Below are positions 40,358-59,229 of a stretch of DNA of 64,000 bases, piece after piece. The first letter of the stretch is position 1; every line of letters begins with the position of its first letter. This DNA is from an uncultured Actinomycetota bacterium. GTDB lineage: Bacteria > Actinomycetota > Actinomycetes > JAFAQI01. The notes under the pieces are model-generated. The model saw nothing but the letters and a program-made list of their open reading frames with translations. It ran no database searches and was not told the DNA's origin. Location of the stretch: contig CAVYQE010000001.1 in assembly GCA_963770565.1 (NCBI GenBank), positions 1,376,001-1,440,000 on the forward strand, read 5' to 3'. The position numbers and the translations under genes are program-made.

Positions 40358-41062
40358 ATGACGGCCAACGCCAGGGTGTTGATCGCGGTCTCAGCCGCTC
40401 TGACACTCGCCGGCTCGCTCGCGACGACGGCGTCCGCCGCGCCGTCGACGACGCCAATCGCGAGCAAGACCTTCGCCGGCTACGAGGTCACCAAGACCAA
40501 GACCCACGTCAGCTCGGTCACCACGACCTTCGCAGTCCCCACCATCACCTGCAAGAAGAGCCTGAGCGGGGTGGGGCCGTCGATCGTCGTGCAGACCACG
40601 CCCAACAAGAAGAACACCTACGCCATCGATGCGGCCGCGGTCGGAGTGGGCTGTGTGAAGGGTAAGCCGGAGTACGAGTCGATCATCGAGGTCAACAGCA
40701 CCAGCTTCAACGACTTCCCGTTCTCGGCCGGCGACAAGGTCAAGGTGACCATCACGCTGAACAAGAAGAAGACGTCGGTCACGGTCGACGACCTCACCTC
40801 GAAGACCTCGAAGACCCGCACCGGCGCCGGCCGGCTCGGTGAGTACGCCTACCTCGGCGACGAGGGCTTGGAGATCAACTCCAAGAAGACCGGGCTCGAC
40901 CCGTTCACCAAGACTTCGTTCACCGGCTCGGAGGTCAACGGCAAGTCGCTCAGCGCGGAGAAGGCGGTCGCCTACGAGGCGAAGCGCGGCAAGACCCTGC
41001 TGATCGCAGTGAGCAAGTTGAGCAAGGGCAAGGACTTCGAGCTCACCTTCGAGCACAGTTGA
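40358..41062 (+). CDS. Secreted Lys/Thr-rich protein with degenerate glutamic peptidase (G1/A4) fold
   Basis: Signal peptide; FAGY, VPTITC, SAGDKVKV, LDPFTKTSFT..VNG and DFELTF follow the order of G1 motifs; catalytic Gln motif absent. Confidence 0.6.
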   Translation: MTANARVLIAVSAALTLAGSLATTASAAPSTTPIASKTFAGYEVTKTKTHVSSVTTTFAVPTITCKKSLSGVGPSIVVQTTPNKKNTYAIDAAAVGVGCVKGKPEYESIIEVNSTSFNDFPFSAGDKVKVTITLNKKKTSVTVDDLTSKTSKTRTGAGRLGEYAYLGDEGLEINSKKTGLDPFTKTSFTGSEVNGKSLSAEKAVAYEAKRGKTLLIAVSKLSKGKDFELTFEHS

Positions 41063-41793
41063 TCCGCTTCGGGGTCGACATCGGCGGCACCGGGGTCAAG
41101 GGCGCCCTGGTCGACATCACGACCGGTCAGCTGGTCAGCGAGCGGGTCCGGGTCCCGACGCCGCATCCGGCCACCCCGGAGTCGGTGGTGCCCGTGGTCG
41201 CCGACCTGGTGCGCCAAGCGTCGTACGACGGGCCGGTCGGGTGTGCGTTCCCGGCCGTGATCAAAGGCGGCATCGCGCAGACCGCCGCGAACATCGATCC
41301 GTCCTGGATCGGCACCTCGGTCGAGTCGACGGTCTCCGGCCAGCTCGGCGGCATCGCGGTCACCGCGATCAACGACGCAGACGCCGCCGGGCTGGCCGAG
41401 ATGCGGTTCGGGGCCGGCCGCGACGTCGCCGGTTTGGTCGTGCTGCTGACCGTCGGCACGGGTATCGGCTCTGCGGTGTTCGTCGACGGTGAGCTGTTGC
41501 CCAACACCGAGCTCGGCCACCTCGAGGTCGACGGTCACATCGCCGAACGCCGGGCGTCGGAGATCGCGCGCGAGGAGCAGCAGCTCAGTCACCGGCACTG
41601 GGCGAAGCGCTTCAACCGCTATCTCGAGGTGCTGGAAGGGCTGTTGTGGCCGGACCTGCTGATCATCGGTGGTGGGGTGAGCAAGGCGCCGGAGAAGTTC
41701 ATGCCGCTGCTCGAGTCGAGGGCAACGCTCGTGCCGGCGACACTGGCCAACACGGCCGGGATCGTCGGCGCGGCGCTGGCCAGCGTGCAGTAG
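41059..41793 (+). CDS. ppgK: Polyphosphate glucokinase (ROK family)
   Basis: [46 protein letters not shown]. Confidence 0.9.
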
Positions 41794-41796: not shown

Positions 41797-43134
41797 TCAG
41801 CCGGTCAGCTTCTCGAGCAGGGCGGCCCGGCGGGCCGGCTTGCCAGACTTCGCCTCGGCACGGTCGGCCGAGGCCATCAAGGCGGTCATCCCACGCACCC
41901 CCAGCCAGCGCAGCGGCTCCGGCTCCCAGCGCCGCCAGCGGTGGCCGACCCACGGCAGATGGGTGCGGTCGGTGTCCCGCTTGAGGATGAGATCGGCCAG
42001 GGTCCGGCCGGCGAGCGCGGTGCAGGCCACTCCGTCACCGACGTAGCCGCCGGCCCAGCCGATGCCGGACTCGCGATCGAGGGTGACCGACGGCATGAAG
42101 TCGCGCGGCACGCCGATGACCCCGCCCCAGCGGTGCGTGATCCTGGCCTGGGCGACCTGGGGGAGCAGTTCGCGCAGGGTCTCCTCGAGCCCGGCGTAGG
42201 TCTCGTCGTGTCCGACCGAACCGCCGGTGCGAGAGCCGAACCGGTACGGCGCACCGCGACCGCCGAAGACGATCCGGCCGTCAGCGGTGCGCTGGGCATA
42301 GATGATCAGGTGCCGCTCGTCGTTGAGCGTCTCCCGCTGGCGCCAGCCGATCCGTTCCCAGGTTTCGGCATCGAGCGGCTCGGTGGCGATGATCAGCGAC
42401 CAGATCGGCGCGAGCAGCCGATGGGTGGCGGGGATGTCGGCGGTGTATCCCTCGGTCGCCCGGATCACGGTGTCGGCCCGCAGGGTGCCGTGCGGGGTCA
42501 CGACCCGGCCGGGATGCACCGCGGTCGCTGCAGTCCGCTCGTAGATCGTCGCGCCCTGGCGCTCGACCACCCGGGCCAGGCCCCGGACCAGGCGGCCGGG
42601 ATGGATCGCCGCACAGTGCCTGGTGAAGCTTGCGCCATCGACATCGGACGCCGCGATCCGCTCGCGCGCCGCTGCGGCATCCAGCCAGCTGCCACCGTGA
42701 CCGTCGCCGCCCGCGCGCAGCCGGGTGACCTGGGCCGGGCCGCGGGCCAGAGACAGCGTGCCGCCCTTGGCATAGTGCGCGTCGACGTCGTGGTCGCGGC
42801 ACCAGTCCCCGACGTCGTCGACGGTGCGCTGGAGGGTGGCCTCCATCCGCCGGGCCGCGTCCGCGCCGTGCTCGCGCGCGATCCGTGACCACGGCACCGG
42901 GAACAGTGCAGAGCACCAGCCGCCGTTGCGCCCGGAGGCTCCCCAGCCCGCGATCTCGCGCTCGACTACCGCAACGCGCAGGCTCGGCTCGTGCCGCAGC
43001 AGGTGGTGGGCGGTCCACAGCCCGGTGAAGCCGGCCCCGACGATCGCGACGTCGACGCCGACGTTGCCCGGCAGGGCGGGACGGGCGGTCAGGTCGTCCT
43101 CACAGGTCTCGAGCCACAGCGATGGGAGCGTCAT
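41797..43134 (-). CDS. FAD-dependent amine/amino-acid oxidoreductase (DAO/PuuB-OrdL family)
   Basis: [56 protein letters not shown]. Confidence 0.88.
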
Positions 43135-43771: not shown

Positions 43772-45151
43772 TTACAGGTGCGACCAGGCCTCGGTCAGCA
43801 CGCTACGGAGCACCTGCTCGATCTCGTCGAACTGGGTCTGGTCGCAGGTCAGTGGCGGTGAGATCTGGATGACCGGGTCGCCCCGGTCGTCGGCCCGGCA
43901 GACCAGGCCGGCCTCGAACAACGCCCCGGACAAGAACCCGCGCAGCAGCCGCTCGCTCTCGTCGTCGTCGAAGGTCTCCTTGGTGGTCTTGTCCTTGACC
44001 AGCTCGATCCCGTAGAAGTAGCCGTCGCCGCGCACGTCACCGACGATCGGCAGGTCGCAGAGCCGTTCGAGGGTGGCCCGGAACTCGGGCTCGTTGGTGC
44101 GCACGTGCTCGAGCAGGCCCTCGCGCTCGAAGATGTCGAGGTTGGCCAGCGCGATCGCACACGACACCGGGTGGCCGGCAAAGGTGATGCCGTGCAGGAA
44201 GGCCGAATCGCCGTGCAGGAACGGCTCGATCAGCTTGTCGGAGGCGAGCATCGCGCCGATCGGGGCGTAGCCGCTGCTCATTCCCTTGGCCACGGTGATG
44301 ATGTCCGGCTGGTAGCCGTAGCGCTCCGCGCCGAACCAGTAGCCGAGCCGGCCGAAAGCGCAGATCACCTCGTCGCTGACCAGGAGTACGCCGTAGCGGT
44401 CGCAGATCTCGCGTACCTGGGCGAAGTAGCCGGGCGGCGGCGTGAAACAACCGCCGGAGTTCTGAACCGGCTCCAGGAAGACCGCCGCGACCGACTCCGG
44501 GCCCTCGCGCAGGATCGCCCGCTCGATCTCGTCGGCGGCCCACTGGCCGAAGCGGGCCAGGTCCTCGCCGTGCTCCGGGGCGCGATAGAAGTTCGTGTTC
44601 GGCACGCGCACGCTGCCCGGGACGAGCGGCTCGAAGATGTTCTTGATCGCGGTGACGCCGTTGATCGAAAGCGCGCCCATCGTGGTGCCGTGGTAGGCGA
44701 TGTCGCGGCTGATCACCTTGTAGCGACCCGGCTCGCCCATCTGGCGGAAATACTGCCGAGCGAGCTTCCAGGCGCTTTCGACCGCTTCGGACCCGCCGGT
44801 GGTGAAGAAGACCCGGTTGATGTCGCCGGGGGCGTAGGAGGCCAGCCGCTCGGCCAACTCGATCGCCGAGGGGTGCGCGTAGGACCACAGCGGGAAGTAG
44901 GCCAGCTGCGCGGCCTGCTTCGCCGACGCGTCCGCCATCTCCTGCCGGCCGTGCCCGGCCTGGACCACGAACAGCCCGGACAGGCCGTCGAGATAGCGCT
45001 TGCCCTTAGAGTCCCAGACGTAGGCGCCTTCGCCACGCTCGATGATCGGGATGTCGTGGTCGGCGTACGTCGACATCCGGGTGAAGTGCATCCACAGGTG
45101 CCGGCGAGCGGCCTCCTGAAGGTGCGTGGCGTCTTGCTGTGAACTACTCAT
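43772..45151 (-). CDS. Class III aminotransferase, probable putrescine/diamine aminotransferase
   Basis: HLWMHFT, GSEAVESA, AYHGTT, EPVQNSGG, DEVICAFGRLG, VAKGMSSGY (PLP Lys), HGITFAGHP; polyamine context. Confidence 0.88.
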   Translation of the reverse strand: MSSSQQDATHLQEAARRHLWMHFTRMSTYADHDIPIIERGEGAYVWDSKGKRYLDGLSGLFVVQAGHGRQEMADASAKQAAQLAYFPLWSYAHPSAIELAERLASYAPGDINRVFFTTGGSEAVESAWKLARQYFRQMGEPGRYKVISRDIAYHGTTMGALSINGVTAIKNIFEPLVPGSVRVPNTNFYRAPEHGEDLARFGQWAADEIERAILREGPESVAAVFLEPVQNSGGCFTPPPGYFAQVREICDRYGVLLVSDEVICAFGRLGYWFGAERYGYQPDIITVAKGMSSGYAPIGAMLASDKLIEPFLHGDSAFLHGITFAGHPVSCAIALANLDIFEREGLLEHVRTNEPEFRATLERLCDLPIVGDVRGDGYFYGIELVKDKTTKETFDDDESERLLRGFLSGALFEAGLVCRADDRGDPVIQISPPLTCDQTQFDEIEQVLRSVLTEAWSHL

Positions 45152-45609
45152 CGGGTGCCCCAGGTGTAGGTCTGTTTGGCCAGTTTGAGGTAGACGAATG
45201 TCTCCGAGTCGCGAACTCCGGGTACGGCGCGAATCGCGTTGTTGAGCAGTGCGAGCAGGTGCTGGTCGTCGTTGCAGACGACCTCCACGAGCAGGTCGAA
45301 CGAGCCCGCCGTGACCACCACGTAGTCGACCTCGGGCAGGGCGGCCAGCTTGTCGGCCACCTCGGCCAGGTCGCCGTCGGCGCGCACCCCGACCATGGCC
45401 TGGCGGGTGAAGCCGAGCTGCATCGGGTCGGTCACCGCGACGATCTGCATGACCCCGGAGTCGAGCAGTCGTTGGACGCGTTGGCGGACGGCGGCCTCGG
45501 ACAAACCGACCGCGGTCGCGATCGCGGCGTACGAGCGACGGCCGTCAGCCTGCAACTGCTCGATGATGGCGCGGTTCGCGCTGTCGAGGGTGGTCGTGGT
45601 CGCAGGCAC
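45148..45609 (-). CDS. Lrp/AsnC family transcriptional regulator (start may be 45639)
   Basis: LDSANRAIIEQLQADGRRSYAAIA..VGLSEAAVRQRV HTH, VTAGSFDLLVE RAM domain. Confidence 0.93.
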   Translation of the reverse strand: MPATTTTLDSANRAIIEQLQADGRRSYAAIATAVGLSEAAVRQRVQRLLDSGVMQIVAVTDPMQLGFTRQAMVGVRADGDLAEVADKLAALPEVDYVVVTAGSFDLLVEVVCNDDQHLLALLNNAIRAVPGVRDSETFVYLKLAKQTYTWGTR

Positions 45610-45720: not shown

Positions 45721-47151
45721 ATGGGTCTTCAGGCGGCACACAACGTCATCGGCGGCGAGGAGTCAGGTGCGGTCGACGGTCGCACGAGCGAAATCATCGA
45801 CCCGACGACCGGCGAGACCTATGCCACCGCCCCGGTCAGCGGTCCGGCCGATGTCGATCGTGCGTTCGCAGCGGCCGAGATTGGCTTCGAGACCTGGCGG
45901 GAGGCGACCCCGGCGGAGCGCCAGGTCGCGCTGCTGCGGCTCGCCGACGCGGTCGAGGCGCGGGCCGAGGAGCTCATCGACATCGAGTGCACGAACACCG
46001 GCAAGCCGCGCGGCCTGACCAGGGCCGAGGAGATCCCTCCGGCGGTCGACCAGATCCGGTTCTTCGCCGGTGCGGCGCGGATGCTCGAGGGTCGCTCCGC
46101 GGGGGAGTACATGGCCGGCCACACCTCGATGATCCGCCGCGAACCGGTCGGGGTCTGCGCGCAGGTCACGCCGTGGAACTACCCGATGATGATGGCGGTG
46201 TGGAAGTTCGCGCCGGCGATCGCCGCGGGCAACGCGATCGTGCTCAAGCCGTCGGACACCACCCCGATGTCCACGGTCTGGATGGCCGACCTCGCGCAGG
46301 AGTTCCTGCCGCCGGGGGTCTTCAACGTGATCTGCGGCGACCGCGACACCGGTCGGGAGCTGGTTGCCCACAAGACCCCGCGGATGGTGTCGATCACCGG
46401 CAGCGTGCGGGCCGGTCGCGAGGTCGCGGAAGCGGCTGCGGGCGACCTCAAGCGGGTCCACCTCGAGCTCGGCGGCAAGGCACCGTGCATCATCTTCGAC
46501 GATGCCGACGTCGAGGCCGCGGCGGCCGGGATCGCCATGGCCGGCTACTTCAACGCCGGCCAGGACTGTACGGCGGCCACCCGGGTGCTCGCTGGTCCGC
46601 GGGTCCACGACGACTTCCTCGACGCGCTGACCGAGGCGGCCAAGGGCCAGACCACCGGCGGGCACGACATCGAGGCCGACTACGGCCCGCTCAACAACGC
46701 CAACCAGCTCGCCCGGGTCAGCGGTTTCATCGAGCGGAAGCCCGCGCACGCCTCGGTCCGCACCGGCGGCGAACGGGTCGGGGACAAGGGGTACTTCTAC
46801 GCGCCGACCGTCGTCGCCGGGCTGGAGCAGGACGACGAGATGATCCAGGACGAGATCTTCGGCCCGGTCATCACGGTTCAGAAGTTCGCCGCGGAGGAAC
46901 AAGCGCTGGAGTGGGCGAACGGCGTGGAGTACGGTCTCGCGTCGTCGGTGTGGACCAAGGATCACGGTAGGGCGATGCGGATGGCGAAACGGCTCGACTT
47001 CGGCTGCGTGTGGATCAACACCCACATCCCGTTCGTGTCCGAGATGCCGCACGGTGGGTTCAAACACTCCGGCTACGGCAAGGATCTGTCCATGTACGGC
47101 TTCGAGGACTACACCCGGGTCAAGCACGTGATGAGCAGCCTCGGCGAGTGA
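45721..47151 (+). CDS. patD: Gamma-aminobutyraldehyde dehydrogenase (PatD/YdcW family)
   Basis: [62 protein letters not shown]. Confidence 0.88.
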
Positions 47152-48317
47152 GCGTCAACGTGAGCGAGGCCCGGCGCGAGGACCCACCGCGCTCGGCAGA
47201 TGTCGCCATCGAGCTGGTGGGTGTCGCCAAGCAGTTCGTCAGCCAGAAAGACACCGTCGCGGCGGTCGACCACATCGACCTGACGATCGAGGAGGGCGAG
47301 TTCTTCTCCTTGCTCGGCCCGAGCGGCTGTGGCAAGACGACGACGCTGCGAATGATCGCCGGGTTCGAGGAGCCGACCAGCGGCAAGGTCCTGCTCTACG
47401 GCACCGATGTGACCTCGGCGCCGCCTAACCACCGCGACGTCAACATGGTGTTCCAGAACTACGCGTTGTTCCCGCACATGACGGTGGCCGAGAACATTGC
47501 CTTCGGTTTGGAGCGCAAGGGCGTCGGCAAGGGCGAGGTCCGGCGCCGGGTGTCGGAGTCGCTCGACCTGGTGGAGCTCACCGGCCGCGACCGCCGGCGC
47601 CCGAAGGAGCTCTCGGGCGGCCAGCAGCAGCGGGTCGCCCTGGCCCGCGCGCTGATCAACCGGCCGCGTGCCCTGCTGCTCGACGAGCCACTCGGCGCGC
47701 TCGACCTGAAGCTGCGGCAGAACATGCAGATCGAGCTCAAGCGGATCCAGCGCGAGGTCGGGATCACCTTCGTTTACGTGACCCACGACCAGAGCGAGGC
47801 GTTGACGATGTCGGACCGGCTCGCGGTCATGAGGGACGGCAAGATCGAGCAGCTCGGGCCGCCGCGCGAGCTCTACGAGCAGCCGACCACCCGGTTCGTG
47901 GCCGGGTTCATCGGGACCTCCAACATCGTGCACGGCACGGTCGAGTCGATCTCCGACGACGGCGCGGTCATGCGCACCTCCGCGACCGAATCGGCCGTCG
48001 TACCGCTGCGCTCGCCGGTGGCAGTCGGCCAGGCGGTGGCGGCCACGGTCCGGCCGGAGAAGATGACGATGTCGATCGACCGGCCGAATCTCGGTTGCGC
48101 GCTGCGCGCCCGGATCAGCGAGGTCGTCTATCTCGGTACGTCGACGAACTACAACGTCGCGACCTCGTTGGGGGACCTGGTCGTCTACCAGCTCAACGCG
48201 GGCGACGACCTGATCGCGCCACAGCGCGGCGACGAGGTCTGGGTCGGCTGGACGCCGCAGCACTCCTACCAGCTGTTCGATGCAGAGCCCACCGAGGAGG
48301 CCCGCGATGACGAGTGA
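47148..48317 (+). CDS. potA: Polyamine ABC transporter ATPase (PotA-like)
   Basis: [47 protein letters not shown] domain. Confidence 0.9.
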
Positions 48318-49551
48318 ACCCACGCACAGCCCGCTGCGACTGGGGCGGCGCGACCTGCTGCGCTACGCCGGCATGGGGGCGGGTCTCGCGACGCTGGCCG
48401 CCTGCGGGGTCAGCGGCGAGGGCAAGAAGCAGGTCACCGGCTCGACGCTCGACCAGCAGATCAAGGCGTTCTGGGCCGGCAAGAAGCAGACCGGCCAGGT
48501 CAACTGGGCGCAGTGGCCGCTCTACATCGACGTCGGGAAGAACAAGGGCGACCACCCCTCGATCGACCAGTTCACCGCGGCTACCGGCATCAAGGTCAAC
48601 TACAGCGAGCCGATCCAGGACGACGACACCTTCTTCGCGAAGGTGCAGCCGACGTTGTCCGCCGGGCAGTACTCCGGCTACGACATCGCGGTCATCACGA
48701 ACGGGATCGACTTCGACAAGTTCACCGAGCTCGGGTTGTTCGTGCCGCTGGACCACTCGTACCTGATCAACTACGAGAAGTACGCCGGCTCCACCTACAA
48801 GCACTCGGCCTACGACCCGGGCAACGTCTACAGCGTCCCCTGGCAGTCCGGGATCACCGGGATCGCTTACAACACCAAGAAGGTGCCGAAGCCGCTGACC
48901 AGTTTCTTCGACCTGTGGAATCCGGCCCTCAAAGGCAAGGTCGGGATGTTCGCCGACAACGAAGACCTGCCGACGCCGGTCCTGGTGGCGATGTTCGGCG
49001 ACCCGCAGAAGACCGGCCCGACCCAGTGGCGGCAGGCGGCGGCGAAGCTGACCCAGCAGCGCAAGGCCGGCATCGTGCGCAAGTACTACCAGCAGGACTA
49101 CATCGGCGCGTTGAGCACCGGTGACATCTGGGCCTGCCAGGCGTGGTCGGGCGACATCTTCCAGGCGTTGGAGTCCGGCGCGAAGGACCTCGTGTTCGTG
49201 ATCCCGTCCGAAGGCGCGGTGTTGTGGACCGACAACATGGTCCTGCTGAAGAACATCAAGAACCCGGTGTCGTCGATGAAGCTGATCGACTGGTACTACC
49301 AGCCGAAGATCGCCGCTGAGGTCGCGGAGTACGTCAACTACATCACGCCGGTGCCCGCCGCCCAGGCGGTCGTCAAGTCCGATGCGCAGAAGGCGACCGG
49401 GTCCAACCGGGCCGCTCTCTCCTCGATTGCGAAGAGCCCTCTGGTCTTCCCGACCCCCGCCGACTACAGCAAGCTCTATCGCTACCGCACGCTGACCAAC
49501 ACCGAGCTCACCACCTGGAACGAGATCTTCGAACCGATCTATCAATCATGA
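48307..49551 (+). CDS. potD: Polyamine ABC transporter substrate-binding Tat lipoprotein (PotD/PotF-like)
   Basis: RRDLL twin-Arg plus LAAC lipobox; WPLYID, YSVPWQSG, AWSGD, IPSEG..WTDNM. Confidence 0.87.
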   Translation: MTSEPTHSPLRLGRRDLLRYAGMGAGLATLAACGVSGEGKKQVTGSTLDQQIKAFWAGKKQTGQVNWAQWPLYIDVGKNKGDHPSIDQFTAATGIKVNYSEPIQDDDTFFAKVQPTLSAGQYSGYDIAVITNGIDFDKFTELGLFVPLDHSYLINYEKYAGSTYKHSAYDPGNVYSVPWQSGITGIAYNTKKVPKPLTSFFDLWNPALKGKVGMFADNEDLPTPVLVAMFGDPQKTGPTQWRQAAAKLTQQRKAGIVRKYYQQDYIGALSTGDIWACQAWSGDIFQALESGAKDLVFVIPSEGAVLWTDNMVLLKNIKNPVSSMKLIDWYYQPKIAAEVAEYVNYITPVPAAQAVVKSDAQKATGSNRAALSSIAKSPLVFPTPADYSKLYRYRTLTNTELTTWNEIFEPIYQS

Positions 49552-50414
49552 TTCGACGGCTTCGATCGGCGAGCGGGCCGTACCTGGCCGTGCTGCCGGG
49601 TGGACTGTGGTTGGCGATCTTCTTCGTCCTGCCGCTGTTCGTGATGGTGTCGCTGTCGGTGCAGACCGGAAACCTCATCACCGGCTTCCAGCAGACATTC
49701 CATTTCGCCAACTACTCGAACATGCTCTCGCTGTATCACGAGCAGCTGCTGCGGTCCTTGTGGTACGGCGTGATCGCCACCGTGCTCTGCGTGATGCTGG
49801 CGTATCCGATGGCGTACTGGATCGCGTTCTTCGGTGGCCGCAACAAGTCGACGTACCTGTTCCTGGTACTGCTGCCGTTCTTCGTCACCTTCGTGCTCCG
49901 CACGGTGGCGTGGCAGTTCCTCCTGGGCGACCAGGGTCTCGTGCTGAGCTGGCTGAAGGACACCGGCATCGTGTCGCAGGACTTCCACGTGCTGGCCACC
50001 GCGACCGCGGTAATCGCCGGACTGGTCTACAACTACCTGCCGTTCATGCTGTTGCCGATCTATGTCGCGCTCGAACGGATCGACCCGAGCCTGCTCGAAG
50101 CGGCCGGAGACCTGTACGCGACCCGCCGGCAGACCTTCCTGCGGATCGTGTTCCCCCTGACCATTCCGGGGATCTTCGCCGGCGTGCTGCTGACCTTCGT
50201 GCCGGTCGTGTCCGACTACGTCAACGCATCGATCCTCGGCGGCACCGGTCAGACCATGATCGGCAACATCATCCAGACCCTCTACCTGACCAACAGCGAC
50301 TATCCGAACGCGTCCGCGTTGTCGATCGTGCTGATGGGGATCCTGATGATCGGGATCTTCGTCTACGCGCGCGCACTCGGCACCCGCGACCTGCTCGATG
50401 CGGCGGCCGGATGA
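49548..50414 (+). CDS. potB: Polyamine ABC transporter permease (PotB-like)
   Basis: YNYLPFMLLPIYVALERID..LLEAAGDL, MIGNII. Confidence 0.88.
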   Translation: MIRRLRSASGPYLAVLPGGLWLAIFFVLPLFVMVSLSVQTGNLITGFQQTFHFANYSNMLSLYHEQLLRSLWYGVIATVLCVMLAYPMAYWIAFFGGRNKSTYLFLVLLPFFVTFVLRTVAWQFLLGDQGLVLSWLKDTGIVSQDFHVLATATAVIAGLVYNYLPFMLLPIYVALERIDPSLLEAAGDLYATRRQTFLRIVFPLTIPGIFAGVLLTFVPVVSDYVNASILGGTGQTMIGNIIQTLYLTNSDYPNASALSIVLMGILMIGIFVYARALGTRDLLDAAAG

Positions 50415-51214
50415 GCACCGCCACGAATGCCGCGGCCGGCCGGGTCGGCAGCCGCATCATGCAGGTCTACACCTGGCTGATCATCCTCTGGCTGATGCTG
50501 CCGATCTTCGTGATCATCGCCTTCGGCTTCAACAACACCAAGGGGAAGTTCAACTACACCTGGCAGGGTGTCACCCTGCACTGGTACCGCCACCTGTTCG
50601 ACATTCCCGACCTCACCAACGCGCTGATCAACTCGCTCACCATCGCGGCGATCGTGACCGTGATCTCCGGCATCCTCGGCACCGGGATGGGCTTCGCCCT
50701 GGGCCGCTGGAAGTTCCGCGGCACCGTGATCACCGAGCTGACGCTGTTCGCCAACATCGCCGCGCCGGAGATCACGCTGGCGACCGCCCTGCTGTCACTG
50801 TTCATCACCGCCAACGTCGCCCGCGGCTACTGGACGATCGTCATCGCACAAGTGATGTTCGACATCGCCTACGTCGCGGTGACGGTGCGGGCCCGGATGG
50901 CCGGGTACGACGTCCATCTGGAGGAGGCCGCGCGCGACCTCGGCGCCGGACCGCTGACCACCTTCCGGCTGATCACCTTGCCGTTGCTGCTGCCGGGCAT
51001 CGTCGCGGGTTGCCTGCTGGCCTTCGCGCTGTCCATCGACGACTTCGTGATCACGCAGTTCAACGCCGGCCAGACGCTGACCTTCCCGTTGTGGGTGTTC
51101 GGCGCCACCCGGTTGGGTGTGCCGCCACAGGTCAACGTGATGGGTACCTTGATCTTCGTGGGCGGCGTACTGATCGCGATCTCGAGCGTCCTGCTGTCGC
51201 GTCGACGGACCTAG
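50411..51214 (+). CDS. potC: Polyamine ABC transporter permease (PotC-like)
   Basis: LEEAARDLGA EAA motif, FALSIDDFVIT, TFPLWVF. Confidence 0.88.
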   Translation: MSTATNAAAGRVGSRIMQVYTWLIILWLMLPIFVIIAFGFNNTKGKFNYTWQGVTLHWYRHLFDIPDLTNALINSLTIAAIVTVISGILGTGMGFALGRWKFRGTVITELTLFANIAAPEITLATALLSLFITANVARGYWTIVIAQVMFDIAYVAVTVRARMAGYDVHLEEAARDLGAGPLTTFRLITLPLLLPGIVAGCLLAFALSIDDFVITQFNAGQTLTFPLWVFGATRLGVPPQVNVMGTLIFVGGVLIAISSVLLSRRRT

Positions 51215-51220
51215 CCGGCA

Positions 51221-52592
51221 ATGGTGAGCTACTGGCTCGATCGCGATCGAGGTGCGGCATCGCCGCACCGGTCACCGTTGAAGGGCGACCAACAGGCCGA
51301 CATCGCCATCATCGGCGGCGGTTTCACCGGGTTGTGGACCGCGATCGAGCTGCTCGAGCGCGCGCAGCCGCTGCGGGTGGTGATCTGTGAGGCCGACGTC
51401 GTGGGGTACGGCGCCTCCGGGCGCAACGGCGGCTTCCTCGACCCGTCGCTCACGCACGGCCTGCTGAACGGGATCCGGCACTTCCCCGACGAGATCGCGC
51501 ATCTCGACGTGCTCGGGGTAGAGAACTACGGCCGGATGTGCAAGGCGTTCGACAACTACGGGATCGACGCCGACTTCGAACCGGTCGGCAACATCGAGGT
51601 GGCGACCCGGGCGCACCAGCTGCCGGATCTGGCCGAGTGGGCCGAGACCGAACAGCAGTACGGGCATCGGGCCGAGGTGCTCGACCAGGCCCAGGCCAGG
51701 GCCCGGCTGAACTCACCGGCCGTGCTCGGCGGGATTCGCCGACCGGATGCCGGCGGCGTGCTCGACCCGGTCAAGCTCTGCCACGGGCTGGCGGCGGCCG
51801 CTGAAGGGCTGAGCGCGGTCATCCACGAGGGCACCCCGGTCACGGCGATCGAGCGGGCCGGGTCGGGGGTCCGGTTGCGCACCCGCGAACGGCACGTTGC
51901 GCTGCGAGCAAGCCGTGCTCGCCACCAACGCCTACAGCGGCCGGGTCCTGCGCCGGACCCGCCGGCACTTCGTGCCGGTCTACGACTACGTCCTGGTCTC
52001 CGACCCGCTCACCGAGGATCAGCGGGCCGCGATCGGCTGGTCCGGTCGCGAGGGGATGTCGGACTCCGGCCACCAGTTCCACTACTTCCGGCTCACCGCG
52101 GACGACCGGATCCTGTGGGGCGGTTACGACGCGGTCTACTACCCGGGCGGACGGGTGGGCCCGCGCTACGACCACCGGCCGGCGACGTACGCGACCCTCG
52201 AGCACAACTTTGCGGCGATGTTCCCGCAGCTGGCTGACCTGAAGTTCCCCTACCGGTGGGGCGGACCGATCGCCACCACGAGTCGGTTCACCCCGGTGTT
52301 CGGGACCGCGATGGGCGGCCGGATCGGCTACGCGCTCGGCTACACCGGGCTGGGTGTCGCGACCACCTGCTTCGCGGCCCGGATCCTCGCCGACATGTTG
52401 TTCGATCCCGGCTCGGACCTGTTGCAGCTGGACTACGTGCGCCGGGCACCGTTTCCGTTCCCGCCCGAGCCGTTGCGGTCCGCGGTGGTCGCGATGACGC
52501 GTCGGGAGATCGCCCGCTCCGACAACCGTGAGGGGCGGCGCGGGCTGTGGTTGCGGATGCTCGACCGGTTCGGGATCGGCTTCGACTCATGA
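51221..52592 (+). CDS. FAD-dependent oxidoreductase (PuuB/OrdL-like), split by a +1 frameshift near 51884-51887
   Basis: [20 protein letters not shown] in the first frame; LATNAY, FHYFRLTADDRILWGG, GYTGLGV, FPPEPLR in the next. Confidence 0.85.
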
Positions 52593-52605
52593 ACTGCTGT
52601 CGACC

Positions 52606-53898
52606 GTGGCGACCTTCCTGTTCTTTCCCGAGGCCGCGTTCGGTCCGACGAACAACTGCGTCGGGATCGGCAACGTCCTCCAACAACGCGGGCATCGGGT
52701 CGTGTTCGTGGTCGAGGAGTCCTTCGCCGGCACCCTCGCGGCGCGCGGCTTCGAGGAGCGGCTGGTCCAGCTGGCGCCGCCGCCCGAGACGCCGCAGGCG
52801 CCGGGACAGTTCTGGAAGGACTTCGTCCGCGACACCTCGCCGATCTTCCGCCGGCCGACGATCGAGGCGCTGGCCGGCTTCGTTCAGCCCACCTTCCAGG
52901 CACTGTGCGACGGCGCGAGGTACGTCGACCAGCGGCTCGCCGAGGTGCTCGACGAGGTCGACCCCGACGTCGTGATCGAGGACAACGTGGTGTCGTTCCC
53001 GGCCATCCTCGCGCGCCGGAAGCCCTGGGTCCGGATCATGTCGTGCAACCCGCTCGAGCTGCCCGACCCGGACCTGCCTCCGGTCTTCTCCGGCTACCCG
53101 ACCGACGACCGCCGCGACTGGGCCGGGTTCCGCGCCGAGGCCGAGCAGGTGCTCGGCCCGCTGCACGCCGAGTTCAACCAGGCCTGCCTCGACCGGGGTG
53201 CGCCCGCGCTGCCGCCCGGTGAGTTCATCCACTCCTCGGCCTGGCTGAATCTCGGGCTGTATCCCTCGGAGCTCGACTACGTGCGCTCGGAGCCGTTGCC
53301 CAACACCTGGCACACCCTGCCGGCGAACGTGCGCGAGAGCGAGTCCGGCTACGAGATTCCCGACCTCGGCGACCCGTCGCTGCCGCTGGTCTACCTCAGC
53401 CTCGGCTCGCTCGGCAGTGCCGACCTGCCGCTCATGCAGCGGCTGGTCGAGCTGCTCGCGCTGACCCGCTGCCGGGTGATCGTCTCCAAGGGCCCGCTGC
53501 ACGACCAGCTCGAACTGCCGGCCGGCATGAGCGGTGCGGAGTACCTGCCCCAGATCGCGGTGCTGCCGCAGGTCGACGCGGTCATCACCCACGGCGGCAA
53601 CAACACGGTCACCGAGTGCCTCTACTTCGGCAAGCCGATGATCGTGCTTCCGTTGTTCTGGGACCAGTTCGACAACGCCCAGCGGGTCCAGGAGTGCGGG
53701 CTCGGCATCCGGCTTCCGACCTACGACGCAAGCGCCGAGGAGTTCACCGCGGCCCTCGACGACGTGCTCACCGAACCGACCCGGCTGGCCCGGCTGGCCG
53801 CGATCTCGGCCGGCTTGCACGCCACCCCGGGCACCGAGCGGGCCGCCGGCCTGCTCCAGGACCTCGTCCAGCGGGGAGATCGGATGGACCACTCGTGA
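52606..53898 (+). CDS. GT1 (UDP-glycosyltransferase/MGT-like) glycosyltransferase
   Basis: LQQRGHRVVF, VYLSLGSLG, YLPQ..VLPQVDAVITHGGNNTVTE..FGKPMIVLPLFWDQFDNA donor-binding signature. Confidence 0.9.
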   Translation: MATFLFFPEAAFGPTNNCVGIGNVLQQRGHRVVFVVEESFAGTLAARGFEERLVQLAPPPETPQAPGQFWKDFVRDTSPIFRRPTIEALAGFVQPTFQALCDGARYVDQRLAEVLDEVDPDVVIEDNVVSFPAILARRKPWVRIMSCNPLELPDPDLPPVFSGYPTDDRRDWAGFRAEAEQVLGPLHAEFNQACLDRGAPALPPGEFIHSSAWLNLGLYPSELDYVRSEPLPNTWHTLPANVRESESGYEIPDLGDPSLPLVYLSLGSLGSADLPLMQRLVELLALTRCRVIVSKGPLHDQLELPAGMSGAEYLPQIAVLPQVDAVITHGGNNTVTECLYFGKPMIVLPLFWDQFDNAQRVQECGLGIRLPTYDASAEEFTAALDDVLTEPTRLARLAAISAGLHATPGTERAAGLLQDLVQRGDRMDHS

Positions 53899-54854
53899 CC
53901 CGAGCGCCTATGTTCGGCCCGGACGTGACCTTCCTCGGGGTCGATCGCTGCGACCTCGCGGACGGCGCGTCGTTCGCCGGCGCCGACATCGTCATCATCG
54001 GCGCGCCGTTCGACAGCGGGACGTCGTACCGGTCGGGAGCCCGGTTCGGCCCGATGGCGATCCGGTCGACCGACTACCTCCCGCACGACGGCTCGCGGCC
54101 GCACCTGGCCCTCGGCGTCGATCCGCTGAAGGACCTGCGGGTGGTCGATGCCGGCGACATCGAGATGCCGCCGACCGAGACCGAGCTCTCGCTCAACCGG
54201 CTCGAGGACGCGGTCTTTGCGGTGGCCGCGGCCGGCGCGATCCCGGTGATCCTCGGCGGCGACCACACGATCGCCTGGCCGGACATCGCGGGCGTCGCCC
54301 GCCACCTCGGCGCCGGCCGAGTGTCGGTGATCCACTTCGACGCGCACGCCGACACCGGCGAGGAGCAGTGGGGATCGCTCTACGGCCACGGCACGCCGAT
54401 GCGCCGGCTGATCGAGAGCGGGTCGGCGCGCGGCGACCGGTTCCTGCAGGTCGGTCTGCGGGGCTACTGGCCCGAGCCGCCGACGCTGGCCTGGATGGCC
54501 GAGCAGGGCATGCGCTGGTTCGAGATGACCGAGGTGGTCGAGCGCGGCCTCGACGCCTGCCTCGACGAGGCCGAAACGGTCGCCCTCGACGACTGCGACG
54601 GCGTCTTCCTCTCGATCGATGTGGACGTCGTCGACCCCGGGATGGCGCCCGGCACCGGAACCCCCGAGCCGGGCGGCCTGACCGGCCGCCAACTGCTCGA
54701 CGCGGTCCGGCGGCTCGCGATCCGGCTGCCGATCGTCGGGATCGACGTCGTGGAGGTGGCGCCCGCCTATGACAGCGCGGACGTCACCGCCATGCTGGCC
54801 AACCGGGTCGTGCTCGAGGTGCTGTCCGGGATCGCGGTCCGCCGCCGGGGTTAG
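53895..54854 (+). CDS. speB: Agmatinase-type ureohydrolase
   Basis: GARFGP, LGGDH, HFDAHAD, HGTP, SIDVDVVDP..APGTGTPEPGG; exact substrate (agmatine or guanidinobutyrate) uncertain. Confidence 0.85.
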   Translation: MTRAPMFGPDVTFLGVDRCDLADGASFAGADIVIIGAPFDSGTSYRSGARFGPMAIRSTDYLPHDGSRPHLALGVDPLKDLRVVDAGDIEMPPTETELSLNRLEDAVFAVAAAGAIPVILGGDHTIAWPDIAGVARHLGAGRVSVIHFDAHADTGEEQWGSLYGHGTPMRRLIESGSARGDRFLQVGLRGYWPEPPTLAWMAEQGMRWFEMTEVVERGLDACLDEAETVALDDCDGVFLSIDVDVVDPGMAPGTGTPEPGGLTGRQLLDAVRRLAIRLPIVGIDVVEVAPAYDSADVTAMLANRVVLEVLSGIAVRRRG

Positions 54855-56563
54855 TGCTCGGCCTCGTCCACGCCCGGGACCGGGGTCGGGCCGGTCGGCT
54901 CGTCGTACTCCGGCGGCACCAGCGGCATGTCGGCCGGGACGTCGTCCCTGCCGATCTGCGGCGGGTAGCCGGCCGGCACGCCGGTGACCTCGGGGACCAG
55001 GGTCGGCGTATGCACGTTCAGCACCTCGCCGCGGAAGAATGCCGGTCGGGCGACTCCGTAGGTCACCATCGCGATCAGGCCGACCAGCCCGGCCCCGACG
55101 ACCAGCACCGCGACACCGCCGACCGCCCAGTGCGGCGGGAACGTCATCTGCCAGCCGGTGAAGCTTGCTTCGGTCGGGTTGTAGTTCTTCGCGTACGGGT
55201 TGAGCCAGTCGAGATAGGCGCTCCAGCCCATCACGATGAACAGGATGACGCCGCCGGTCACCGGGATGATGCCCTGCATGAACAGGTCACGGGTGTTCTT
55301 CGTCAGGGTCTTGCGGTACCACCAGGCGCAGGCGAAACCGGTGGTGCCGTAGTAGAGCGCGATGAAAACGCCGCAGGCGGTCACCGAGTCGCTGATGACC
55401 TGGCCACCCGACAGGTAGTTCATGATCACGTAGAGCACCGCGGAGACCGCGCCCATCGCGACGGTCGAGTTGGTCGGGGTCAGGTGCCGCTTGTGGATCT
55501 TGGCGAACGTGGTCGGGATCGCGCGGTAGACCGCCATCGCCAGCGACGTCCGCGCGGTGGGCAGGATCGTCGTCTGGGTGGACGCCGCGGCCGAGCTCAG
55601 CACCATCAGCAGCAGCAGCTTGACGAAGATGGTGCCGACCGAGGAGTGGCCGAAGACCGCCCGCCCGAGCACGTTGAGCACGTCGTTCGAGTGGTCCGGG
55701 TTGCCGAGACCGATTCCGTGGACTCCGACACCGGCGAAGGACTGCGCAGCCAGGATGACCACCGCGTAGATCGCGAGCAGCAGGACGGTAGAGATCACCG
55801 CCGCGCGCCCAGGGGTGGTCGCCGGGTCCTTGGTCTCCTCGTTGACCGTGACCGCGGTGTCCCAGCCCCAGTAGATGAAGATCATCAGGATCAGGCCGGC
55901 CACGAAGGCCGAGACGCTGGGGATGTTGAACGGGTTGAACCAGCTCCACGACGGGTCGACGTGGGTCGGCCCGGCGTGGCCGGTCCCGACCTTGATCAGG
56001 GCGACCGCGGCGAAGACGATCAGCATGCCGGCCTCGATCGCCAGCAGGCCCTTCTGCATGTTCGCCGAGACCTCGATCCCGCGGTAGCAGATGTAGGTCA
56101 TCAGCGCGATCCAGATCAACCCGACCAGCAGCACCCAGCCACTCGCCGCGTTGTCGCCGATCCCGTTCGCGCCGAACAGCAGGAAGACGTACTGACCGGC
56201 GATCTGGGCCAGGCTGGCCATGATCAGCACGTCGGAGGCGATGATCCCCCAGCCGCCCATGTACCAGCCGGCCCGCGGGCCGAACATCCGGGTGGCCCAG
56301 GTGAAGGTGGTGCCGCAGTCCGGGTCCTGCTTGTTCAGCTCGCTGTAGCCGACCGAGATCATCCACATCGGGATGAAGGCGAGGACCGCCACGACGGCGG
56401 ACTGAAGCCCGACGAAGGCGACGATGAAGCCGAGCGTCGCGGCCAGGCTGTAGGCCGGCGCGGTCGAGGCGACGCCGACGACCACGGTCGACCAGAGGCC
56501 GAGGGTGCCGCCCTTCAGACCCTTGCCGGTCGGCGATTCCGTCGAGGTAACGGTGGCTGACAT
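54851..56563 (-). CDS. APC family amino acid/polyamine permease
   Basis: Multi-TM; GVASTAPAYSL, FIYWGWD..VNEETKDP motifs. Confidence 0.88.
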   Translation of the reverse strand: MSATVTSTESPTGKGLKGGTLGLWSTVVVGVASTAPAYSLAATLGFIVAFVGLQSAVVAVLAFIPMWMISVGYSELNKQDPDCGTTFTWATRMFGPRAGWYMGGWGIIASDVLIMASLAQIAGQYVFLLFGANGIGDNAASGWVLLVGLIWIALMTYICYRGIEVSANMQKGLLAIEAGMLIVFAAVALIKVGTGHAGPTHVDPSWSWFNPFNIPSVSAFVAGLILMIFIYWGWDTAVTVNEETKDPATTPGRAAVISTVLLLAIYAVVILAAQSFAGVGVHGIGLGNPDHSNDVLNVLGRAVFGHSSVGTIFVKLLLLMVLSSAAASTQTTILPTARTSLAMAVYRAIPTTFAKIHKRHLTPTNSTVAMGAVSAVLYVIMNYLSGGQVISDSVTACGVFIALYYGTTGFACAWWYRKTLTKNTRDLFMQGIIPVTGGVILFIVMGWSAYLDWLNPYAKNYNPTEASFTGWQMTFPPHWAVGGVAVLVVGAGLVGLIAMVTYGVARPAFFRGEVLNVHTPTLVPEVTGVPAGYPPQIGRDDVPADMPLVPPEYDEPTGPTPVPGVDEAEH

Positions 56564-56617
56564 CCCATGCCCTCCCAGAGGTGTAGATGAAGGTTCTCGC
56601 ACTAAACGGGGGTCTTG

Positions 56618-56686: not shown

Positions 56687-57904
56687 ATGCGAGCAGTCAT
56701 CCTCGGGTCGGGCGGGGTCGGCGCCGCGGCCGCCCGGATCGCCAAGAGCCGCGAGTTCCTCACCTCGGTCGTGCTGGCCGACTACGACGAGGAGCGGGCC
56801 AAGTCCGCCGCGGCGGCGACCGGCGACCCGCGGTTCAGCGGGGTGCAGGTCGACGCCAGCGACGCGAGTGCAGTCGCGGAGCTCCTCAAGACCACGAAGG
56901 CCGACGCGGTCCTGAATGCTTGCGACCCCCGCTTCGTGATGCCGATCTTCGACGCCGCGTTCGAGTCCGGTACGACGTACCTGGACATGGCGATGTCGCT
57001 CTCGCACGCCCATCCCGACGAGCCGTACGCGAAGACCGGCGTGATGCTCGGCGACGAGCAGTTCGCGAGAGCGGCCGAGTGGGAGAGCCGCGGCGTGTTC
57101 GCGCTGGCCGGGATCGGCGTCGAGCCCGGCCTCTCGGACATCTTCGCGCGCTATGCCGCCGACCAGCTGTTCTCCTCGATCGACGAGCTCGGGGTGCGCG
57201 ACGGCGCCAACCTGGTGGTCGAGGGCTACGACTTCGCGCCGACCTTCTCGATCTGGACCACGATCGAGGAGTGCCTGAACCCGCCGGTGATCTGGGAGAA
57301 GGGCCGGGGCTGGTTCACCACGCCGCCGTTCAGCGAGCCGGAGGTCTTCGACTTCCCGGAGGGAATCGGCCCGGTCGAGTGCGTCAACGTCGAGCACGAG
57401 GAAGTGCTCCTGATGCCACGCTGGATCGACGCCAACCGGGTCACCTTCAAGTACGGCCTCGGCGACGAGTTCATCAACGTCCTGCGCACGCTGCACAAGC
57501 TCGGCCTCGACTCGATCAAGCCGGTCAACGTCGGCGGCACCTCGGTGTCACCGCGGGACGTCGTCGCGGCCTGCCTGCCCAACCCGGCGACCCTCGGCGA
57601 CCAGATGCGCGGCCGGACCTGCGCCGGCACGCTCGTCACCGGCACCGGTAAGGACGGCAACCCGCGCGAGGTCTACCTCTACCAGGTGGCGGACAACGAG
57701 ACCTGTATGCGCGAGTGGGGCTCCCAGGCGGTGGTGTGGCAGACCGCGGTCAACCCGATCGTGGCGATGGAGCTGATCGACGCGGGCACCTGGTCGGGTG
57801 CCGGCGTACTCGGGCCGGAAGCGCTCGACCCGCAGCCGTTCCTCGACCTGCTGCCCGACTACGGCGCGCCCTGGGGAATGGTCGAGCGCACCCCGCGCGG
57901 CTAA
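56687..57904 (+). CDS. Saccharopine dehydrogenase-family NAD(P) oxidoreductase (carboxy(nor)spermidine dehydrogenase-like)
   Basis: ILGSGGVG Rossmann motif, YLDMA, GIGVEPG, FSIWTTIEE, HEEV, GVLGPEA. Confidence 0.82.
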   Translation: MRAVILGSGGVGAAAARIAKSREFLTSVVLADYDEERAKSAAAATGDPRFSGVQVDASDASAVAELLKTTKADAVLNACDPRFVMPIFDAAFESGTTYLDMAMSLSHAHPDEPYAKTGVMLGDEQFARAAEWESRGVFALAGIGVEPGLSDIFARYAADQLFSSIDELGVRDGANLVVEGYDFAPTFSIWTTIEECLNPPVIWEKGRGWFTTPPFSEPEVFDFPEGIGPVECVNVEHEEVLLMPRWIDANRVTFKYGLGDEFINVLRTLHKLGLDSIKPVNVGGTSVSPRDVVAACLPNPATLGDQMRGRTCAGTLVTGTGKDGNPREVYLYQVADNETCMREWGSQAVVWQTAVNPIVAMELIDAGTWSGAGVLGPEALDPQPFLDLLPDYGAPWGMVERTPRG

Positions 57905-59229
57905 GCCTGCTGGGCGAAGGCCTTCTCGAGCACGCCGAGCGCGTCGTCGAGGAGCTCGTCGGAGATCACCAGCGGCGGCAGGAAGCGCAGCACGTTGCCG
58001 TAGCTGCCCGCGGTAAGGACCAGGACGCCGTCAGCGTGGCAGGCCGCGGCCACCCGCTTCGTCAGGTCGGCGTCCGGGGTGATCCCGTCGGCCTCGACCA
58101 GCTCGATCGCGATCATCGCGCCCCGGCCGCGCACCTCACCGATGGCGGGGTGGCACGCCGCCAGGGCCTGCAGCCGGGCGGTCATCAGCGTGCCGATCGC
58201 CGTGGCCCGCTCGAGCAGGCCGTCCGCCTCGATCGTCTCGATCGCAGCGAGCGCCGCAGCGCATGACAGCGGGTTGCCACCGAACGTGCCGCCGAGCCCG
58301 CCGGCGTGAACCTGGTCGACCAGCTCGGCGCGCGCGGTGACACCCGCGATCGGCAGGCCGCCGCCGAGACCCTTGGCGGTCGCGACGAGGTCGGGCACGA
58401 CGCCCTCGTGCTCGCAGGCGAACCACGCCCCGGTGCGCGCGATCCCGGTCTGCACCTCGTCGGCGACCAGGAGGGCTCCGTTGTCGTGGCACCAGTTGGC
58501 GAGACCGTTCAGCCAGCCTGGCTCCGGCACGATGAACCCGCCCTCGCCGGCGATCGGCTCGACCACGATGCAGGCGATGTTGGTCGCGCCGACGGTCTTG
58601 TCGAGGAAGGCCAGGGTCGAGGCCAGGTCGCCGGTGCCGCGGAAGGGATAGGAGTACTGCGCCCGGTAGACCTCGGGAGCGAACGGGCCGAAGCCCTGCT
58701 TGTAGGGCATCACCTTGCCGGTGAGGCTCATGCCGAGCAGGGTGCGGCCGTGGAAGCCGTGATCGAACGCCACCACCGCGTCGCGCCCGGTGACGTAGCG
58801 GGCGATCTTGACGGTGTTCTCCACCGCTTCCGCGCCGGAGTTGACCAGGTACGACCGCTTGTCGTGGTCTCCCGGCGTCAAGCTGTTGAGCCGCTCGCAG
58901 ACCTCGATGTAGGACTCGTACGGCGTGACCTGGAAGCAGGTGTGGGTGAACCGCTCGACCTGCTCGGTGACCGCACTGACCACGCGGGGCGCGGCCGAGC
59001 CGACCGTCGTGACCGCGATGCCGGCGGCGAGGTCGATGAAGCGGTTGCCGTCGACGTCCTCGACGATGCCGCCCGAGGCGCGCACCGCGAAGACCGGCAG
59101 CGTGGTGCCGACCGCGGTGGGCAGCGCGGCCGAACGGCGGGCCATCAGCGCCTGCGAGTTCGGGCCGGGCACCGCGGTTGCCAGCCGGCGTTGCTGCGGA
59201 AGGGCCTCGGGCGCTGCGGAGTCAGCCAT
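57901..59229 (-). CDS. gabT: 4-aminobutyrate--2-oxoglutarate transaminase
   Basis: [65 protein letters not shown]. Confidence 0.93.

Follow-up and report, generated by a model that had tools for sequence, protein, structure and literature searches.

A GT1 glycosyltransferase clade without the catalytic histidine is linked to amine catabolism and may cap amines with sugar

What does a glycosyltransferase do in a polyamine gene cluster, and which acceptor does it use when the catalytic histidine of its family is missing? This question is raised by a stretch of 64,000 nucleotides from an uncultured Actinomycetota bacterium (assembly GCA_963770565.1, contig CAVYQE010000001.1, positions 1,376,001 to 1,440,000 of the forward strand), which is called the window here. 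The window is high-GC, and by their translations its core genes look actinobacterial; a polyamine cluster is located between rlmN and dxr. The cluster contains two flavin adenine dinucleotide (FAD) oxidases, a class III aminotransferase, an AsnC regulator, a PatD-like dehydrogenase, potA-D-B-C, a family 1 glycosyltransferase (GT1; the gene in question is called GT below), a ureohydrolase, an APC permease, a saccharopine-dehydrogenase-like gene and gabT (Table 1). GT belongs to the co-directional run patD-potA-potD-potB-potC-oxidase-GT-ureohydrolase with intergenic gaps of -11 to +13 bp. Its start codon is found 13 bp downstream of the oxidase stop (52592), and its end shares the letters GTGA with the ureohydrolase start. 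An earlier note on this DNA had placed GT in the same way at the end of the pat/pot run, and the coordinates agree. The note also placed an FAD oxidase directly upstream; the position is right, but the gene is broken by a frameshift near 51890, overlooked at that time, into two PF01266 pieces. The essential gene tsf (EF-Ts, window about 36296-37106) is also frameshifted, near 36860, and the third-position GC content of GT and its neighbours is normal (0.90-0.95). An assembly error is therefore likely for the oxidase. A promoter and terminator scan gives no signal above shuffled sequences, and Rfam gives no match in window positions 40000-60000.

The GT protein scores above the cut-offs of both PF00201 (Table 1) and PF06722, and its model (predicted local distance difference test score 94.7) has the GT-B fold. 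The best fold match is PDB entry 7mco, with Z 50.1, a root-mean-square deviation of 2.4 Å and 423 of 427 residues superposed; a second spider-mite UDP-glycosyltransferase (UGT; UDP, uridine diphosphate) follows with Z 45.3 and OleI with Z 39.3. By sequence, the closest solved relatives are also two spider-mite UGTs (E 1.8e-66 and 3.1e-51), the next one being at 4.5e-22. The N-terminal loop of GT reads FFPEAAFGPTNNC. Pro14 of this loop aligns without gap to the His of AFGHVNAC in mite UGT203A2 and is the equivalent of the catalytic base His25 of TuUGT202A2. For the latter enzyme the phmmer alignment to 6pnt has a two-residue gap at the loop, and we fixed the alignment manually by the G-H-x-N-x-C pattern; the pocket residues were likewise mapped by hand on the sequence alignment, not by model geometry. 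TuUGT202A2 uses a His25-Asp140 dyad, and its Leu20 contacts the acceptor (PMC10731231). His25, Asp140, Leu20 and Gly363 correspond to Pro14, Asp126, Glu9 and Trp352 of GT. The Asp of the usual GT1 dyad is retained. Its His is replaced, a loss that the earlier note had recognised, and neither the hydrophobic pocket of the mite type nor a base of the His25 type is found.

The donor side is different. A first mapping confirmed 9 of 13 TuUGT202A2 contact residues for UDP or UDP-glucose (Arg252 and Asn27 to UDP among them) as identical, namely G13, S146, R243, S294, H329, N333, E337, D353 and Q354 of GT; N16 matches Asn27 too. Judged by sequence, the donor site is intact, and the nucleotide-sugar signature that the earlier note had read (H329 GGNN T E337, D353 Q354) holds. 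The N-domain segments 70-113 and 182-210 also align in GT, which superposes on 7mco. These segments were proposed as gains that evolved in mites, absent from solved bacterial glycosyltransferases (PMC10731231). Given their presence in a bacterial GT, both may have come with the transferred gene. Concerning the acceptor, UGT72B1 and PtUGT1 are reported to carry out N-glycosylation largely without need of the His (PMC10641439), and ester-forming GT1s without it are still active on carboxylate acceptors at high enzyme load (PMC12728629), so that the loss of His alone does not settle the acceptor atom. The change to Pro14 also fits a pre-ionised carboxylate acceptor, or Glu9 as substitute base.

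The loss of the histidine is not restricted to the window. The query and its 120 best homologues by overall similarity, out of at least 8000 clusters, all share the motif FFPE-x-A-[FY]-GPTNNC (121 of 121 sequences). A wider set contains 150 representatives at 50% identity, 80 of which align across the motif; all 29 with at least 45% identity have Glu9 and Pro14, and His is found in 33 of the 51 more distant ones. We further aligned the main clade, a His-less sister clade and His-bearing proteins, the last chosen for having His. Glu9 occurs in 66 of 66 scored main-clade rows, which is circular as the motif scan selected for it, in 9 of 9 sister-clade rows, which were collected independently of the motif, and in 1 of the 31 rows with His. 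Trp352 is present in 81 of 81 His-less rows and 0 of 31 His-bearing rows, and Asp126 in all 114 rows. On these alignments the change from His to Pro is characteristic of the clade, and the clade-wide motif rules out a single mutation or an error of sequencing. Trees, which omit 7 of the 80 loci described below with short or uncalled GTs, group the window GT with a Thermoleophilia/Chloroflexota branch. Two trees, with no distant outgroup, disagree on where the His-bearing group branches with respect to the groups without His. One of them attaches His-bearing mite-like proteins within the His-less main clade (unstarred support 93, no outgroup); if this nesting is real, His was regained. Atlas searches returned generic glycosyltransferase and SIS clusters only.

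A motif scan of genome contigs found at least 119 loci, of which 80 with flanks were analysed by gene calling, clustering and translated searches and 39 without flanks were left out. The 80 loci are a sample, and selection by the motif precludes His-bearing and sister-clade genes. L055, in which unrelated ABC (ATP-binding cassette) hits had been summed, was dropped from the polyamine set; the L032 kinase and the L080 SIS gene were counted despite contig-end cuts. A glucosamine-kinase-like gene is found in 26 loci, a SIS protein in 23, a PatD-like dehydrogenase in 21, a TetR gene in 14, a PotD-type binding protein with a [DE]RW motif in 13 and an oxidase of the window type in 8. To the last, the C-terminal piece of the window oxidase is 49-54% identical, compared with 27-35% for other oxidases there. 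PRK13473 is the best match of all 21 intact dehydrogenases scanned, and 18 of them exceed its cut-off. An amine-catabolism marker of any kind is present in 27 loci, a kinase and/or SIS gene also in 27, and both sets in 18. The association of kinase/SIS with polyamine markers has a Fisher p of 1.6e-5, uncorrected for kinship. Direct adjacency to GT is observed for TetR in 14 of 14 cases, for the kinase in 13 of 24 and for the dehydrogenase in 12 of 22, while abundant multi-copy families such as short-chain dehydrogenases/reductases occur at 3-7 of the 80 loci only and farther from GT. The markers are unevenly spread, being present in 19 of the 25 loci from Actinomycetes, 7 of the 14 from Chloroflexota and 4 of the 23 from Thermoleophilia, and kinase/SIS neighbours are spread over nine named orders besides Thermoleophilia and Chloroflexota. 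The branch of the window GT itself contains direct links: aminotransferase-GT in L039, GT-oxidase in L020 and L005, GT-dehydrogenase-kinase in L049 and GT-kinase-SIS in L024.

Missing linkage of the homologues to polyamine genes had been named beforehand as a result that would speak against a polyamine role. The linkage is present, both in the 27 marker-bearing loci and in the His-less sister clade of Alphaproteobacteria and haloarchaea. It joins GT to genes for the import of amines, for the oxidation of amines and aminoaldehydes and for the phosphorylation of sugars, the kinases differing by lineage. A tie to agmatinase or guanidine, also suggested in the earlier note, is not borne out as a conserved partnership: an agmatinase-like gene occurs in 1 of 80 loci, not adjacent to GT but 5 kb away and beside a decarboxylase-like gene. 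Polyphosphate glucokinase, cupins, ROK, phosphomutase, saccharopine-dehydrogenase-like and AsnC genes were rejected as partners of the main clade, each being found in 0 of 80 loci. Transporter genes of other kinds were also seen. NMT1/THI5-like or sulfonate-type ABC genes adjoin GT in several loci (L027 1152-2815, L049, L126 13317-16377) and ECF-type transporter genes are near it in Chloroflexota; these neighbours may be shared synteny. Lake bacteria of the Planktophila type have very small genomes. A Candidatus Planktophila metagenome-assembled genome (L080, 3636-11881) keeps the dehydrogenase, ABC importer, GT, kinase and SIS genes together.

The linked kinase is a member of the SjGlcNK family, with E 6.8e-56 to 6hwj. 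Of 25 called kinase genes, 4 of which are truncated or mis-called, 14 have the family signature Q-x2-RE-x2-YA-x3-LP-x-W; one GT-linked kinase scanned against NF041273 scores 273 against a cut-off of 550. Glucosamine-6-kinase activity was shown for two members of the family, and a Km of 8 mM is given (Manso et al. 2019, PMC6520443). The catalytic Glu and His of glucosamine-6-phosphate deaminases and GlmS have aligned counterparts in the SIS protein, and a Met replaces the Lys three residues ahead of the conserved Glu. Its model superposes on the GlmS isomerase domain with Z 34.7 (2.4 Å, 316 aligned) and on FrlB with Z 24.5 (2.8 Å, 286 aligned), at about 16% identity to either. The binding protein is a PotD subtype that marks the GT cassette (examples are L007 13614-14714 and L120 11108-12166). 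Its [DE]RW motif is present in 12 of the 13 proteins called in actinobacterial loci and in 2 of 2 from Alphaproteobacteria; identity between the two groups is 55-60%, compared with about 40% for the GTs. In the alignment it has a Trp where PotD has its amine-binding Glu. Among 27 PDB hits of the cassette binding protein, the top hits are all polyamine binders and none is named for opines or Amadori compounds.

The His-less sister clade, about 40% identical to the main clade, shows a related context. Rhizobium, Pararhizobium and Ruegeria have potD-B-C-A-GT-cupin-cupin-dehydrogenase operons and a second, divergent GT. Two His-less paralogues are located on divergent alphaproteobacterial operons in L120 (8656-9954, 14992-16284), L121 and L128, the second one with Ala where the His would be. 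Gln354 is replaced by Gly in the sister clade, which suggests a different donor sugar. Its haloarchaeal members are found in GT-cupin-dehydrogenase-ROK kinase-phosphomutase clusters of Natrialba and Natronorubrum, which also have polyamine-type ABC genes, FAD oxidoreductases and aminotransferases. A plasmid collection contains 14 records with GT. One of these GTs is in a potDBCA-GT context, one of the Streptomyces plasmid GTs has no polyamine-type context, and one Pseudomonas copy is a fragment. In the reciprocal search, 11 of 11 plasmid records with a binding protein of at least 53% identity have GT within 3.5 kb, and the 9 weaker binding-protein hits (one inspected) include no GT record. This collection has one kinase hit and one SIS hit, each of them beside a GT.

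From this context the GT clade probably acts in amine catabolism of some kind, on a small amine. The reading that we prefer is forward N-capping, in which a sugar from a UDP-sugar caps the amine, the free end is oxidised, and the sugar is removed and salvaged; we give it a probability of about 0.4. An amine would be imported by the PotD-type ABC system, as the gene linkage suggests, and GT would move a hexose or hexosamine from the UDP-sugar to the amino nitrogen. The amine may fill the space left by the change from His to Pro and be held and deprotonated by Asp126 and Glu9. The free end would then be oxidised by the FAD oxidase or aminotransferase and afterwards by the aminobutyraldehyde dehydrogenase, families that are all present, in an order that we infer. 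The last step would differ by lineage. In actinomycetes the glucosamine-kinase-like enzyme and the GlmS-like SIS protein could produce fructose-6-phosphate and the amine from a glucosamine-type product, while in haloarchaea the ROK kinase and the phosphomutase would lead back towards UDP-sugar. A kinase beside a phosphomutase points to salvage of released free sugar, hence to forward capping and not to reverse transfer. The removable cap proposed in the earlier note gains in this respect, as salvage partners are found in the form of kinase and SIS or of ROK kinase and phosphomutase. The overall logic would be that of gamma-glutamylation with a sugar instead of glutamate. In the window GT is located in an ordinary actinobacterial polyamine cluster without kinase and SIS.

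Several observations weigh against N-capping. The His-independent N-glycosylations published to our knowledge concern aromatic amines, and aliphatic amines are protonated and their glycosylamines labile. The proposal offers no route from UDP-glucose to the glucosamine-type product, and uncapping of the Amadori type by an FrlB-like step is disfavoured because the SIS model is nearer to GlmS than to FrlB. The window has no true kinase or SIS hit in its 64 kb, the one hit being a mis-called open reading frame that overlaps a GT gene, and its PotD is only 27-32% identical to the [DE]RW subtype and thus not the GT-linked one. Neither marker set is present in 44 of the 80 loci, including 19 of the 23 from Thermoleophilia, the nearest tree kin of the window GT. 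After correction for kinship by independent pairs the association keeps its direction with a median p of 0.25, which is not significant with few pairs, and 8 of the 11 reciprocal plasmid records are Rhizobiaceae. The Natrialba GT cluster also keeps a glutamine-synthetase-like ligase and a glutamine amidotransferase, so GT is no simple replacement for glutamylation there; the sugar cap and the glutamyl cap may serve different amines.

The same genes could serve the degradation of an imported sugar-amine conjugate, such as an N-alkyl-glucosamine or an amine glucosaminide. GT would then strip the sugar, in reverse with UDP or as a UDP-assisted hydrolase using Glu9 and Asp126, the kinase and SIS protein would consume glucosamine, and the oxidase and dehydrogenase would consume the amine. 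The distinct [DE]RW binding protein with its Trp for the Glu of PotD, the glucosamine phosphorylation by the kinase family and the GlmS/deaminase-like SIS protein with its catalytic Glu and His retained all agree with this. However, reverse transfer makes UDP-sugar, for which no kinase is needed, and it is uphill for low-energy glycosides by established chemistry; the window has an ordinary PotD; and no such conjugate is known to be so common that microbes of lakes, soil, the sea and hypersaline sites would all meet it. We consider this explanation rather unlikely. A little more doubtful still is that, within the same pathway, the acceptor atom is an oxygen, either of a hydroxylated amine, for which Glu9 or the amino group of the substrate itself would be the base, or of a pre-ionised carboxylate or carbamate such as gamma-aminobutyric acid (GABA) or an amine-CO2 adduct. 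The ester-forming GT1s that work without His, the carboxylate-making dehydrogenase adjoining GT in 12 of 22 loci and Glu9 at an acceptor-contact position would suit it. Yet a glycosidase would be required to open a stable O-glycoside, and the neighbours scanned show no recurring glycoside hydrolase; the conserved pocket acids Glu9 and Asp126 moreover would suit a cation better than a carboxylate.

Two further explanations place GT outside amine catabolism, and we regard both as very improbable. Manso et al. 2019 report the kinase as tightly linked to a SIS gene and a GT1, with a mutase and a uridylyltransferase in one species, and the trio as part of predicted biosynthetic clusters in several species, which they read as secondary metabolism (PMC6520443). 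Kinase, SIS protein, mutase and nucleotidyltransferase would then make activated glucosamine for GT to place on a secondary metabolite. The glucosamine kinase activity of two family members fits this proposal, as does the kinase signature in 14 of 25 called genes near GT. Against it, 'No cluster detected' is the entry for many rows in their Table S2 (PMC6520443), no polyketide synthase or nonribosomal peptide synthetase family recurs among the neighbour families scanned, the cassette is retained in Candidatus Planktophila (L080), and 18 of the 27 kinase/SIS loci also have amine-catabolism genes. GT could otherwise be an O-glucosyltransferase that serves detoxification and is promiscuous in the manner of OleD or the mite UGTs, with an incidental polyamine context. 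Its best structural relatives are indeed promiscuous mite UGTs, and the 44 loci without marker have varied neighbours. But the catalytic-base His of the mite enzyme is absent, the pocket positions are near-invariant across the clade, the score for TIGR01426 is 109 against a cut-off of 260, and the amine-catabolism context is repeated in Actinomycetota, Chloroflexota, Alphaproteobacteria and haloarchaea.

A comparison with known systems shows what N-capping by GT would share with them. The gamma-glutamylation route (PuuA-B-C-D; GlnA2/GlnA3, SCO5671 and SCO5666 in S. coelicolor) has the importer, FAD oxidase, aminobutyraldehyde dehydrogenase and GabT in common with it and follows a logic of capping, oxidising and uncapping (PMC8998196, PMC9397018), which we propose here with a sugar cap and other uncapping enzymes. 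The window encodes both the aminobutyraldehyde dehydrogenase (PRK13473) and the GABA aminotransferase (PRK06058) of that route. Its oxidase matches PF01266 and no curated PuuB model; by gene order it would be a candidate orthologue of SCO5671. A tblastn search with the Natrialba protein finds no glutamine-synthetase-like ligase in the window or the 80 loci, and a PuuD-like hydrolase is absent from the window and found in 1 of 80 loci (L073, the query itself). The glucosamine kinase operon (SjGlcNK/MsGlcNK with SIS and GT1) has the same kinase family beside a GT1 that is uncharacterised in the available text of Manso et al. 2019, in difference to the window GT, which is without kinase and SIS. 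That GT1 is probably of the same family as our clade, because M. bacteremicum, the species of locus L053 (TetR-GT-kinase-SIS-oxidase), is included in their Table S2 (PMC6520443). The word 'polyamine' appears nowhere in their main text (PMC6520443).

Amadori catabolism by FrlD and FrlB resembles the cassette in having a kinase and a double-SIS protein able to free an amine from a sugar-6-phosphate. However, FrlD is a PfkB-type kinase, while the kinase near GT has the maltokinase fold, and we know of no Frl system with a glycosyltransferase. Macrolide and YjiC-type GT1s (OleD, OleI, YjiC) have the GT-B fold in common with GT, and automatic database names call the family 'MGT', but structural identity is about 21% and the clade has no His. 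Membership was rejected by score (TIGR01426 109.2 against 260, Mgt 91 against 700, OleI 58.8 against 700). The spider-mite UGTs TuUGT203A2 (PDB 7lvy/7mco) and TuUGT202A2 (PDB 6pnt/8sfy) share the UDP-glucose contacts and the dyad Asp. They retain the catalytic His in an open hydrophobic pocket for flavonoids (PMC10731231), where the GT clade has Pro or Ala, Glu9 and Trp352 and a conserved catabolic gene context. That the mite UGTs are of bacterial origin was already known (PMC10731231, PMC9113151).

The features of the polyamine cluster are collected in Table 1. The ureohydrolase contains the Mn-binding motifs GGDH, DAHAD and SIDVDVVDP. By gene context the class III aminotransferase would be putrescine aminotransferase-like, and the polyphosphate glucokinase at the cluster edge is a possible means of local sugar salvage. 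The saccharopine-dehydrogenase-like protein has a 28% identical relative in a Rhizobium GT operon. Between rlmN and the glucokinase gene, positions 40358-41062 encode a 234-residue, Lys/Thr-rich and probably secreted protein with no NCBIfam match.

Table 1. Features of the polyamine cluster in the window (scores are followed by the cut-off of the model)
Feature	Position	Strand	Basis and remarks
Polyphosphate glucokinase at cluster edge	41059..41793	+	NF045942 348.5 vs 250
Second FAD amine oxidase	41797..43134	-	45-49% identical to oxidases near GT in L020, L039, L053
Class III aminotransferase	43772..45151	-	PRK06541 826.5 vs 574
Divergent Lrp/AsnC regulator, start uncertain	45148..45609	-	profile scan
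Aminobutyraldehyde dehydrogenase, PatD-like, start codon uncertain	45721..47151	+	PRK13473 705.5 vs 615
PotA-like ABC ATPase	47148..48317	+	TIGR01187 390 vs 355.6
PotD-like binding protein, not [DE]RW subtype	48307..49551	+	profile scans, identity comparison
PotB-like permease	49548..50414	+	profile scans
PotC-like permease	50411..51214	+	profile scans
FAD amine oxidase, frameshifted near 51890	51221..52592	+	PF01266
His-less GT1 glycosyltransferase (GT-B)	52606..53898	+	430 aa; Pro14, Glu9, Asp126, Trp352; PF00201 65.6 vs 19.5
Ureohydrolase, agmatinase-like	53895..54854	+	TIGR01230 193.8 vs 174.3; PRK02190 223 vs 302
APC-family amino acid/amine permease	54851..56563	-	profile scan
Saccharopine dehydrogenase / carboxynorspermidine synthase-like	56687..57904	+	carboxynorspermidine synthase model 188.5 vs 800
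GABA aminotransferase GabT	57901..59229	-	PRK06058 687.7 vs 639; TIGR00700 573.7 vs 506.65

A review of 2022 lists five bacterial polyamine routes, namely glutamylation, transamination, direct oxidation, dehydrogenation and acetylation, and none of them, in its available text, involves a sugar (PMC9397018). The string 'glycosyl' was not found in the available text of this review or of the S. coelicolor paper (PMC8998196). A literature search that paired glycosyltransferase with polyamine, with most subscription journals outside its coverage, returned no such pathway and one synthetic-chemistry paper. New here is the connection, seen in four groups, of the His-less clade with amine catabolism and with the kinase-SIS pair. 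The clade is real, conserved and uncharacterised, and its catabolic context is well supported; its mechanism is a proposal. We tentatively propose a further route of polyamine catabolism, in which a His-less GT1 may transfer a sugar or amino sugar from UDP to an aliphatic amine as a cap, and kinase and SIS protein, or ROK kinase and mutase, may strip and recycle it.

Polyamines are a common nitrogen and carbon source, and the proposal joins three uncharacterised families (GT, its SIS partner and the PotD subtype) and the glucosamine kinase into one testable pathway. If it is true, the orphan actinobacterial glucosamine kinase gains a physiological role, and the route spans Actinomycetota, Chloroflexota, Alphaproteobacteria and haloarchaea. 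A GT1 active on aliphatic amines without a His base would be new chemistry and a useful catalyst of N-glycosylation. The finding also bears on the origin of the detoxification UGTs of mites, as it would identify the clade of primary metabolism from which the mites took them.

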